Positions 22,484-62,835 of a stretch of DNA of 64,000 bases are shown here, piece after piece. The notes below the pieces were generated by a model, which was not told the DNA's origin, ran no database searches, and was given only the letters and a program-made list of their open reading frames with translations. Source of the stretch: Octopus vulgaris (taxonomy: Eukaryota); the NCBI GenBank assembly GCA_951406725.2, contig OX597821.1, positions 48,112,001 through 48,176,000 on the forward strand, given 5' to 3'. Each line of letters starts with the position of its first letter. The stretch's first letter is position 1. The position numbers and the translations under genes are program-made.

Positions 22484-22523
22484 AGTTATCTGATGAAGGA
22501 CCAGCATCCAAAATGTCAACTGA
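22484..22523 (+). ncRNA. CpG-decayed minimal hammerhead ribozyme relic (PLE-terminus type)
   Basis: agtt-at-CTGATGA-a-gga(ccagca)tcc-AAAA-tg-TC-aact; two CpG transitions away from CCGAAACGTC. Confidence 0.55.
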
Positions 22524-23218: not shown

Positions 23219-23602
23219 TTGGTTTGCAAGATTCTTTATATGAGTTCGTGTGTTGAAGCATATTCTGTTGTGTCTGGGGAGAGTCATTTTCTTTTTGTGC
23301 CTTATAATGTAATACACTCACCGGTAAAATTTCCACTTATTTCTTATTTTTATTTTCCTAAAATTTTCGTTGCGTGTTGCAACCTTTTCAATAGTTTTGA
23401 CTCTCAAAACTATTGAAAAGTCAAAACTATTGGAAAGGTTGCAACACGCAATGAAAATTTTAGGAAAATAAAAATAAGAAATAAGTGGAAATTTTACCAG
23501 TGAGTGTATTACATTATAAGGCACAAAAAGAAAATGACTCTCCCCAGACACAACAGAATATGCTTCAGCACACGAACTCATATAAAGAATCTTGCAAACC
23601 AA
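23219..23602. repeat. Long inverted repeat (~185-bp arms) with a hammerhead-like motif in each arm
   Basis: 23219-23402 is the near-perfect reverse complement of 23419-23602. Confidence 0.92.
23357..23394 (-). ncRNA. Minimal hammerhead-like motif, U3:A8 core variant
   Basis: Minus strand: cta-TTGAAAA-g-gttgc(aacac)gcaac-GAAA-at-TT-tag. Confidence 0.5.
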
Positions 23603-23829
23603 ATTATAAGGCACAAAAAGAAAATGACTCTCCCCAGACACAACAGAATATGCTTCAGCACACGAACTCATATAAAGAATCTTGCAAACCAAATTATAAG
23701 GCACAAAAAGAAAATGACTCTCCCCAGACACAACATAATATGCTTCAGCACACGAACTCATATAAAGAATCTTGCAAACCAAATTATAAGGCACAAAAAG
23801 AAAATGACTCTCCCCAGACACAACAGAAT
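23513..23829 (+). repeat. 90-bp tandem repeat, 3.5 near-identical copies
   Basis: attataaggcac...gcaaaccaa starts at 23513, 23603, 23693 and 23783. Confidence 0.95.
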
Positions 23830-35395: not shown

Positions 35396-35516
35396 ATGTA
35401 TATATATATAAACACACACATATATATATGTATACACACACATTATGATATATATATATATCAAGATAACAAAAACAACAGGTGCATTAGTTTAACGCTT
35501 GGGAAGGTATGAAAGT

Positions 35517-35552
35517 CTTTTACATTTCAAGCCTACGCTCTTCAACTGAAAG
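35517..35552 (-). ncRNA. Decayed minimal hammerhead-like motif
   Basis: Minus strand: cttt-CAGTTGA-a-gagc(gtag)gctt-GAAA-tg-TA-aaag. Confidence 0.45.
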
Positions 35553-35950
35553 GAACACAAGAAAATAAACAGAGAGAATAAAAAAGCTTTAGTGGCTAGT
35601 GGTCGATCATGACGGCTGGCTGGACGGAAGTGGTCAGACAGGAGATAATAAAGTAGTGATGATCCCCAGAACAAAGGTGCGTATGTATGAGAGTAAGTGT
35701 GTGCTTGTGGATTGGGGCTGATGACCTTGACGTGTGGATGTGTGCGTGTGTAGGTGTGTGGATGATGGTGTAAGTGCTGGGAAGTGGTCAATGATAGTGT
35801 GCACGTATGTGCAAGGCCAGTTCAAAATTGCCCGCCAAACACCTCATAAGCACGATATGGTCAAAATAAACATGTATGTATGGACGTTCGTATATGTAAG
35901 TATAATGTGTTCTGTATATATATATTTGTATTTATGTGCCTATCTGATAT

Positions 35951-36008
35951 ATTCAACTGATGAGGCAAAGCTTATTTGAAGCAAAGCTAGAAATCCAGGA
36001 TCTTGAAT
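35951..36008 (+). ncRNA. Type I hammerhead ribozyme candidate
   Basis: Stem I attcaa/ttgaat, core CTGATGA, stem II ggc..gctt/aagc..gct, GAAA, stem III atcc-a-ggat, AUC cleavage triplet at 36000-36002; one extra A before GAAA. Confidence 0.7.
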
Positions 36009-36254
36009 TATTCAGTAATATTTTTTACTAGTCTATTTTTGTCCCTCTGTCGTATCTCATGGTGCGATATGAACATTTAAGGTGGTTTTGGGAGTCAGGG
36101 ATTTGACTGCTATTTCAGCATGGTGGTGTCTCTCGGACACCCTTATTTATCGTTGTATAAAATATATTACCTTTGAATGGTATTTTCCCATGCTGGCCAC
36201 TTGATAATATCGATATTTAAACATCGATATTATCCTTATTTATAAATTTATATC

Positions 36255-36299
<45 letters not shown>

Positions 36300-62051: not shown

Positions 62052-62100
62052 GACCACTGATGAGGTCACAGGAGTGTAATGAAAGAACTCTGGCCGAAAT
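62052..62100 (+). ncRNA. Partial hammerhead motif (core + stem II + GAAA) within a direct repeat
   Basis: CTGATGA-ggtca(...gagt..actc)tggcc-GAAA; no stem I partner seen downstream. Confidence 0.45.
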
Positions 62101-62835
62101 AAGATTAAGATTAATGTAAAAAATAAATAACGCTGAAGCAAAGTAACACCAAATATATAGTGCGTGTGCTTTTATTGGCTAAACTGGCAAAATGACCATT
62201 CCTAAATACAACAATATCTGTTTCAACACACGATTTCACATCAAAAATCATGCAAAACAAATATATAAGCGTAAAAATTAAACATACTTCTATCTCTAAA
62301 AAGAATCAATTTTCTGTAAAATTAAAAATATTACTTTCTGAAAATATTAACCAACATATGCCCTTAGCAAAAGAGCATAAGTAACATAAGACATAAAAAG
62401 TAACAGTTAGCTTCCTTCCCTTCAAAAAGGCACAGGCAACATGGCTATATAAATTTAACCCCACATGTGAGCTACAGAGGCATTGGAGAACATACTTTAA
62501 ACTTTGAAATCTAATGATTTCAAAACTGGTTTATGAAATGTTATGTTATTTCCCCTGTACAAAATGTCTTTGCTTAAAATATACATTAACATTTATTCAG
62601 TTGAATATGTTTTATGTAATGTTTTTATTCAAAAATTTGTCTGTAAAATATGATTCTCTTTCCCTGCACAAAACTCACCTTGTGAAAACACATTAATATT
62701 TTTACTGTAAAACTTTTACATGAAAATATTTGTTATGCGCAAACATCATTTTGTATCTATATCTTCATATATGTAGATATATAACAGAAATATTAACCTT
62801 CTAGGTTTAAAAATAAAAACTTGTTTTATTTAATA

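Follow-up and report, generated by a model that had tools for sequence, protein, structure and literature searches.

A type I hammerhead motif at a probably dead insertion and its repeat family with a Penelope-like footprint

Does a hammerhead-shaped motif at one locus of a 2.8-Gb animal genome represent a ribozyme spoiled by a single added base, or is it one sample of a wider design? The window, a 64-kb stretch of DNA, holds such a motif, which the original prediction took for a well-formed type I hammerhead whose extra A before GAAA might have made this particular copy inactive. The hammerhead motif is real, and it belongs to a family that we delineate here as an addition to the animal non-LTR retrozymes, bearing the footprint of Penelope-like elements (PLEs). 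In the reading that we favor, with a probability of about 0.6, this type I hammerhead belongs to a ~485-nt unit that would be cut slowly in a dimer-dependent manner, form circles, and be copied from two ends into (TA)n by PLE enzymes, the window holding a truncated and likely dead copy. The interest of the case rests on the family, with its atypical junction and its age-ordered core changes, and not on the window locus.

Each named feature of the predicted anatomy was borne out by the letters of the window (Table 1). The perfect 6-bp stem I and its ctga/tcag extension, the canonical CUGAUGA and GAAA boxes, the two-tier stem II with symmetric AAA bulges, and AUC at the predicted cleavage site were all found where they had been placed, and the outer helix covaries among copies. 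The motif has the CUGANGA and GAAA boxes of type I hammerheads as well as a UH after stem III, and a conserved UAU/UAU internal loop is separated from the core by 6 bp. The descriptor for a complete type I hammerhead (stem I of at least 6 bp, stem III of at least 3 bp, and stem II of at least 3 bp) matched the window once, at this motif, and gave at least one match in 2 of 300 block-shuffled windows. The folding energy of the motif is unremarkable (z = −0.23), and Rfam returned no hammerhead match for the window at the gathering score or for the surroundings of the motif at E ≤ 10.

Table 1. Features of the insertion that carries the hammerhead motif (window coordinates)
Feature	Position	Strand	Remarks
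Type I hammerhead-shaped motif, with outer helix and UAU/UAU internal loop	35944..36015	+	Outer stem CUGA (35944..35947)/UCAG (36012..36015), as read in the window
Stem I, 5′ strand (AUUCAA)	35951..35956	+	Partner UUGAAU, 36003..36008; A-U to C-G double change in the oldest subfamily, 9/73 rows
Core CUGAUGA	35957..35963	+	Unpaired A/C after the core absent in the window sublineage, present in the other 7 subfamilies
Two-tier stem II, with 3-bp IIa, a 3x3 purine loop, 4-bp IIb, and a loop of 5 nt	35964..35988	+	First pair G-U in the window copy; IIa GGC (35964..35966)/GCU (35986..35988); IIb GCUU (35970..35973)/AAGC (35979..35982); AAA/AAA internal loop between IIa and IIb
Unpaired A before GAAA, family-wide	35989	+	582 matches with it, 0 without
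GAAA, near-palindromic stem III AUCCAGGAU, and C17	35990..36002	+	GAAA, 35990..35993; AUCC-A-GGAU, 35993..36001; AUC, 36000..36002; predicted cut after 36002, placed by hammerhead consensus
Right arm: 5′-truncated copy, unit ~348-488 then 1-252, ending at the distal fixed end	35866..36253	+	92.6% mean identity to 27 other subfamily copies
Inverted stump of left arm, unit ~277-348	35800..35872	-
CCCTTATTTAT motif immediately preceding the proximal fixed end (~154 nt past the cut site)	36140..36150	+	Passed through in the window copy
12-bp perfect hairpin, then second CCTTATTTATA motif immediately preceding the distal fixed end (~253)	36203..36234	+
(TA)n microsatellite entered by the 3′ end of the element, likely target	36237..36296		145/178 fixed ends then TA-rich

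When the isolated motif was folded computationally, pairing probabilities ranged from 0.82 to 0.93 for stem I, the outer helix, IIa, and IIb, with stem II at 0.82. The fold of a P-subfamily copy that breaks off within stem I was left out of account. Stem III, described earlier as AUCC-A-GGAU with a 1-nt loop favoring intermolecular pairing, is present in its letters and suited to a dimer, but as drawn it cannot close within one molecule. Its predicted monomeric form in the isolated motif has 3 bp and a CAG loop at +2.4 kcal/mol, with a pairing probability of 0.01, while the 9-mer is predicted to pair with a second copy of itself at −7.6 kcal/mol. These modeled energetics fit the dimer mode of metazoan and PLE hammerheads (PMC4209133).

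The base singled out as a defect of this copy proved to be the norm of the family. Comparison of the paralogues at 35986 to 35989, as originally proposed, identifies A35989 as the consensus letter and not as an extra base, and exact matching across the genome found 582 sequences with it and none without. Its equivalent is present in all eight subfamilies and in 186 of 189 full copies, and in two samples whose anchors lay outside the hammerhead, 63 of 64 and 14 of 14 cores have it; in the contigs of four public runs (organisms A, C, and D), no change at this base is listed at a frequency of ≥3%. The proposed damage to G10.1-C11.1 also falls away, as G35964 faces U35988 and the pair is therefore absent with or without A35989. 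A “repaired” form lacking this A was discarded as a candidate: it has 0 genomic matches against 582 for the control, and the deletion would leave G-U instead of G-C.

What sets the window sublineage apart is the loss of an A or C between 35963 and 35964. The seven other subfamilies have an unpaired A or C after CUGAYGA; together with the A before GAAA, this base closes stem II with a mismatch, A-A or C-A. With the 5′ base lost, the window sublineage is left with G-U and a lone bulged A on the 3′ side. A G10.1-C11.1 pair stacked on A9 and G12 is thus lacking in the window copy, the unpaired A before GAAA is found family-wide, and position 11.1 is U in four subfamilies, that of the window among them. 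The sublineage accounts for 28 of 218 copies in a sample biased toward it and for 1 of 64 in a sample anchored outside the hammerhead. Judging from its sequence, the window copy is likely inactive, given the G-U pair and lone 3′ bulge at the junction and the loss of any partner hammerhead at the locus. The A-A or C-A junction was not found in the hammerhead literature that we searched, though the catalogue of PLE-associated hammerhead variants by Lunse et al. may already cover this junction with its A before GAAA. Junctions with U-U occur naturally and can cut (PMC3088659; axolotl Amex2, PMC7229834), and U-U supports more cleavage than any other mispair (PMC3088659).

The repeat is abundant. 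An 18-mer of the family has 1,224 exact matches genome-wide, which puts the family at 1,224 copies at least, and a 21-mer has 582; a 341-bp query returned 3,046 first-look candidates, of which the 40 that were scored showed 90 to 93% identity. The 64-kb window holds no second copy of the repeat. Fifteen natural cut-to-cut tandem units measure 462 to 488 bp, giving a unit of ~485 bp that is non-coding (longest ATG open reading frame [ORF] of 36 to 90 aa, none common to the units). Head-to-tail tandems with a hammerhead in consecutive units occur in the family (these 15 units), one array comprising four units, and the window locus has a single motif. Units within one insertion carry a common haplotype; in the tandem L201, for example, the units carry one variant that is absent from the rest of 47 copies. 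Folded as circles, the units reach z scores of −3.7 to −9.1 (5 of 15 tested), and the predicted pairing probability of stem I is ≤0.28 in all 15 whole circular units. For organisms A, B, C, and D, assembled contigs of sequencing runs presumed to be RNA contain pieces of the family, a kind of evidence that cannot show transcription, ends, or circles.

Other hammerhead-like sequences and tandem repeats were met along the way. A hammerhead pattern gave 7,014 matches, and by eye ~98 of the first 100 listed lay outside the studied family. Within the window, hammerhead-like cores with CUGAUGA...GAAA and a long stem II occur at 62057 to 62105 and from 63990 onward (L268:558 and 2491), inside a ~1-kb direct duplication whose copies are 97.7% identical and 1,933 bp apart. 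In a degenerate, minimal hammerhead-like core at 22490 to 22515, stem II is 3 bp long and AAAA stands where GAAA would be, and a near-perfect 90-bp tandem (3.5 copies, 99%) lies at 23219 to 23829, with an inverted 90-bp copy ~200 bp upstream. At other loci, a second family of minimal hammerheads (L236-L265), the source of most of the 7,014 pattern matches, has a canonical G10.1-C11.1 and is unrelated in sequence to the studied family, the core of yet another family directly follows a TA tract that ends a tandem copy (L061:1677-1710), and a young two-armed tandem repeat of ~495 bp (L354:1717-3086) belongs to a different family.

To evaluate the structure, we aligned 73 of the 218 sampled copies, taking up to 9 distinct copies per subfamily. 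The paralogues keep the stems, as the original prediction required of them: over the 73 rows, 94.8% of cells are paired. Both partners change in seven pairs, and for six of these the double change is seen in 9 to 23 of the 73 rows. Of the six, the outer helix and stem IIa hold two each, and stem I and stem IIb one each; as the aligned rows are related, they correspond to about six events. The covariation score was 0.205, compared with 0.119 for shuffled alignments, and sliding the partners gave no more than 0.074. Covariation is seen in stems I and II; stem III is 96.6% paired with zero double changes.

The subfamilies form a ladder. In a midpoint-rooted tree of 56 copies, in which many inner forks are weak, P/O are followed by A/B and C/D and then by I and Y, with Y nested in I (support of 98/94), and within-group identity climbs from 87% (O) to 96.2% (Y). 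The core of group I is CCGAUGA (U4C). In group Y it is UUGAUGA, where C3U stands against G8 as a U3-G8 mismatch; this group has also regained G10.1-C11.1, with its third pair compensated and a loop III of 2 nt. Y provides 48 of 64 cores in the downstream-anchored sample, which favors young copies, and 9 of 12 tandem run-ons. The letters G5, A6, G8, A9, GAAA, U16.1, and C17 are in the majority in all eight subfamilies, an invariance that for groups found with core patterns arises by construction and is not evidence there, groups I and Y being exempt. C3U is expected to slow cutting, and the succession of U4C and then C3U in the younger subfamilies should do so.

We then turn to how the copies end. 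Of the 218 hammerhead-bearing copies, 213 could be aligned downstream, and 178 of their 3′ ends fall into two clusters, 92 at ~253 nt and 86 at ~154 nt past the cut site, the remainder being 12 tandem run-ons and 23 ends elsewhere. TA-rich sequence follows 145 of the 178 fixed ends, and the motif CCTTATTT(A/T)TA directly precedes both end points. The 5′ ends are ragged. The two arms of a back-to-back pair end at different points (154/253) in 70 of 91 cases and at the same point in none; the other 21 pairs, which include the window locus, have at least one end elsewhere. With anchors placed 55 nt past the cut site (n = 92), 70 copies read upstream through it, 17 stop short, and 5 end within ±7 nt; 5′ ends are thus not clearly enriched at the cut site (4.6 per 1,000 nt at risk versus 2.5 to 3.7 nearby; 2 of 30 in a second sample). 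From this pattern, the main template was not a cut linear monomer but either a circle or an uncut multimer, two templates that the common haplotype within an insertion fits alike.

Altogether, the family displays 5′ truncation, partial tandems, an inverted 5′ copy, alternative fixed 3′ ends, and microsatellite targets. PLE insertions are described as 5′ truncated and partly tandem, with inverted 5′ copies and a bias toward microsatellites (PMC8557442), and for one PLE protein, cutting and extension of the two strands of AT-rich DNA from two internal RNA start sites have been shown (PMC11167929). As the pattern matches both these insertions and the two-start, two-strand extension seen in vitro, the footprint is Penelope-like, and insertion by a Penelope-type enzyme is likely.

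The window locus probably shows this footprint in a damaged state. The stump of its left arm meets an older repeat partway along the sequence, and TA is missing from the joint; for this reason the left arm probably once reached the 154 end with a second hammerhead and was deleted later. The older repeat (35456 to 35799) is abundant, with 45 matches in the fetched loci at ~70 to 87% identity, and has hammerhead-like boxes of its own near 35515 to 35545 on the minus strand. A chimera formed with this neighbor in one event was considered and is disfavored: the neighbor is far older, as judged by its ~70 to 87% identity to relatives, it continues further in another copy, and it abuts none of the other sampled insertions in like fashion. 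From its sequence, the window locus is probably an ordinary truncated copy that is dead.

According to the reading that we favor, tandem copies would be transcribed, and two neighboring hammerheads would base-pair with each other by way of the palindromic stem III and slowly cut, possibly aided by a protein. The monomers would be closed into circles, and a PLE would act as the helper with its reverse transcriptase (RT) and GIY-YIG endonuclease. Its protein would nick both strands of a (TA)n tract, one cDNA starting ~154 nt and the other ~253 nt past the cut site; each would run through the hammerhead, at times through several units, until the two meet back to back. Animal retrozymes are cut and circularized and are proposed users of PLE enzymes (PMC7229834), and autonomous PLEs with RT plus GIY-YIG ORFs of 775 and 781 aa are present in the same genome. 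Against this cycle, the arrays would be explained equally well by a homogeneous tandem master gene and by a circle, and in vitro, PLE insertion did not depend on cleavage by the hammerhead (PMC11167929).

A search for the GIY-YIG family gave 148 matches, with 150 of 6,136 candidates scored, and comparison of the unit with 40 GIY-YIG loci yielded no helper match (only TA-rich noise by blastn; best E value of 3.3 by nhmmer). The PLE with the 775-aa ORF, which looks Neptune-like from its motifs, is very young, encodes RT and GIY-YIG domains with a Zn-finger-like linker (L160:2582-4985 and L356:2897-5903), and has at least 40 copies identical over 366 bp, located in (TA)n with arms ending at one site. 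By our reading of the alignment, it has a CCGAAGA core and a U-U stem II junction; odd junctions are therefore not unique to the studied family in this genome. As a helper it was rejected, for although its stem II junction is similar, both arms end at one site in four of four pairs. The other PLE family (L156-L159) is present in high copy number and has an upstream ORF in addition to its 781-aa RT plus GIY-YIG ORF; its terminal repeat of ~456 bp contained no standard hammerhead, and having no hammerhead by pattern search, it too was rejected as a helper.

The same element and the same Penelope-type insertion could be combined with a hammerhead that no longer cuts, uncut tandem RNA serving as the template and the stems being kept for protein binding or RNA pairing. 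We regard this as a tentative account, which would explain why the sublineage without the 5′ spacer base was still amplified (28/218 copies in the biased sample) and why the youngest subfamily, Y (96.2% internal identity), is abundant among cores (48/64) and run-ons (9/12) in spite of its U3-G8 mismatch. The missing pile-up of 5′ ends at the cut site and the weak predicted stem I in whole units (≤0.28, 15/15) point in the same direction, as do catalytic mutants that did not lower insertion in vitro (PMC11167929) and a report in which 8 of 9 Xenopus retrozyme dimers remained uncut (bioRxiv 2026.07.22.740005). Loss of cutting sits less easily with the core letters held by the majority in eight of eight subfamilies, though partly by construction, with the G10.1-C11.1 pair regained in Y through a compensated stem, and with natural U4C and U-U junction variants that keep some activity (PMC3088659; PMC7229834). 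That the lineage preserved its fold by compensation while losing catalysis stepwise (junction mismatch, U4C, and C3U), the altered branch being the youngest and most tandem, is likewise possible but doubtful.

It is quite improbable that, instead of forming an independent short element, the copies represent solo terminal repeats (pLTRs) from an autonomous PLE. Most PLE hammerheads are indeed single motifs in truncated copies (PMC4209133), and 5′ truncation is heavy here, but copies that extend far upstream enter the preceding unit of the same repeat, up to four units, and a common longer upstream sequence was found in 0 of 125 mapped loci. The unit has no match to the 40 PLE loci compared, and an ORF for RT plus GIY-YIG is absent from the unit and from the sequence upstream of long copies, though the family may have had an autonomous ancestor. 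A chance cluster of hairpins, or a satellite spread by DNA recombination, would agree with the unremarkable folding energy of the motif and the empty Rfam search; we consider it extremely unlikely, as the descriptor was matched in only 2 of 300 shuffles, six pairs are compensated, the 3′ ends are fixed and the 5′ ends ragged with paired arms, and the subfamilies succeed one another in a ladder. Covariation and the end pattern together refute it.

Hammerheads in PLEs and animal retrozymes have low activity in vitro and were dispensable in one system. Within a single genome, the present family provides one motif in eight natural forms that can be ordered by age; each was copied many times, and they vary in the stem II junction and in core positions 3 and 4. 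Comparing them side by side would show to what extent the element depends on catalysis and whether an A-A/C-A junction works, and the rule of one arm per start site makes a precise prediction about Penelope-type RNA copying. If catalysis has been lost, the fold would be a protein-binding or RNA-pairing scaffold for Penelope-type mobilization, and the ladder of subfamilies would be a natural test of the need to cut.

Like the animal non-LTR retrozymes (Cervera and de la Pena 2020, PMC7229834; Li, Clavereau and Pollet 2026, bioRxiv 10.64898/2026.07.22.740005), the family consists of non-coding units that are low in GC, measure a few hundred bases, and have one type I hammerhead each; it occurs in tandem and solo copies with a stable predicted fold and shares its genome with PLEs. 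Its unit of ~485 bp lies above the 150 to 450 bp given in PMC7229834 and within the 51 to 972 bp given in bioRxiv 2026.07.22.740005. Unlike those retrozymes, it consists mostly of dispersed two-armed insertions with two fixed ends and has the A-A/C-A junction. In the main text of PMC13282606, the words “hammerhead” and “ribozyme” do not occur.

The hammerheads of PLE terminal repeats (Cervera and de la Pena 2014, PMC4209133) are similarly of type I with a long stem II and a palindromic stem III suited to dimers, and the unpaired base that they have between 9 and 10.1 is shared by seven of the eight subfamilies. The studied family differs from them in a further unpaired A between 11.1 and G12, in the U at 11.1 in four subfamilies, in the missing 5′ unpaired base of the window sublineage, and in that no ORF-bearing parent was found. 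A mismatch next to the core likewise closes stem II in hammerheads with U10.1-U11.1 (axolotl HHR_Amex2, PMC7229834; Perreault et al. 2011, PMC3088659), and HHR_Amex2 is reported to cut weakly alone and better as a dimer (PMC7229834); in the studied family, unlike in these U-U hammerheads (PMC3088659, PMC7229834), the mismatch is A-A or C-A or is replaced by a lone 3′ A. With regard to insertion, the family resembles PAc, a Poseidon-type PLE of Anolis (Frangieh et al. 2024, PMC11167929), in having two internal start points, AT-rich targets, both strands extended, and copies that read through the hammerhead. PAc, however, is autonomous, with start sites 30 to 40 nt apart, whereas the present family is non-coding, with fixed ends ~100 nt apart.
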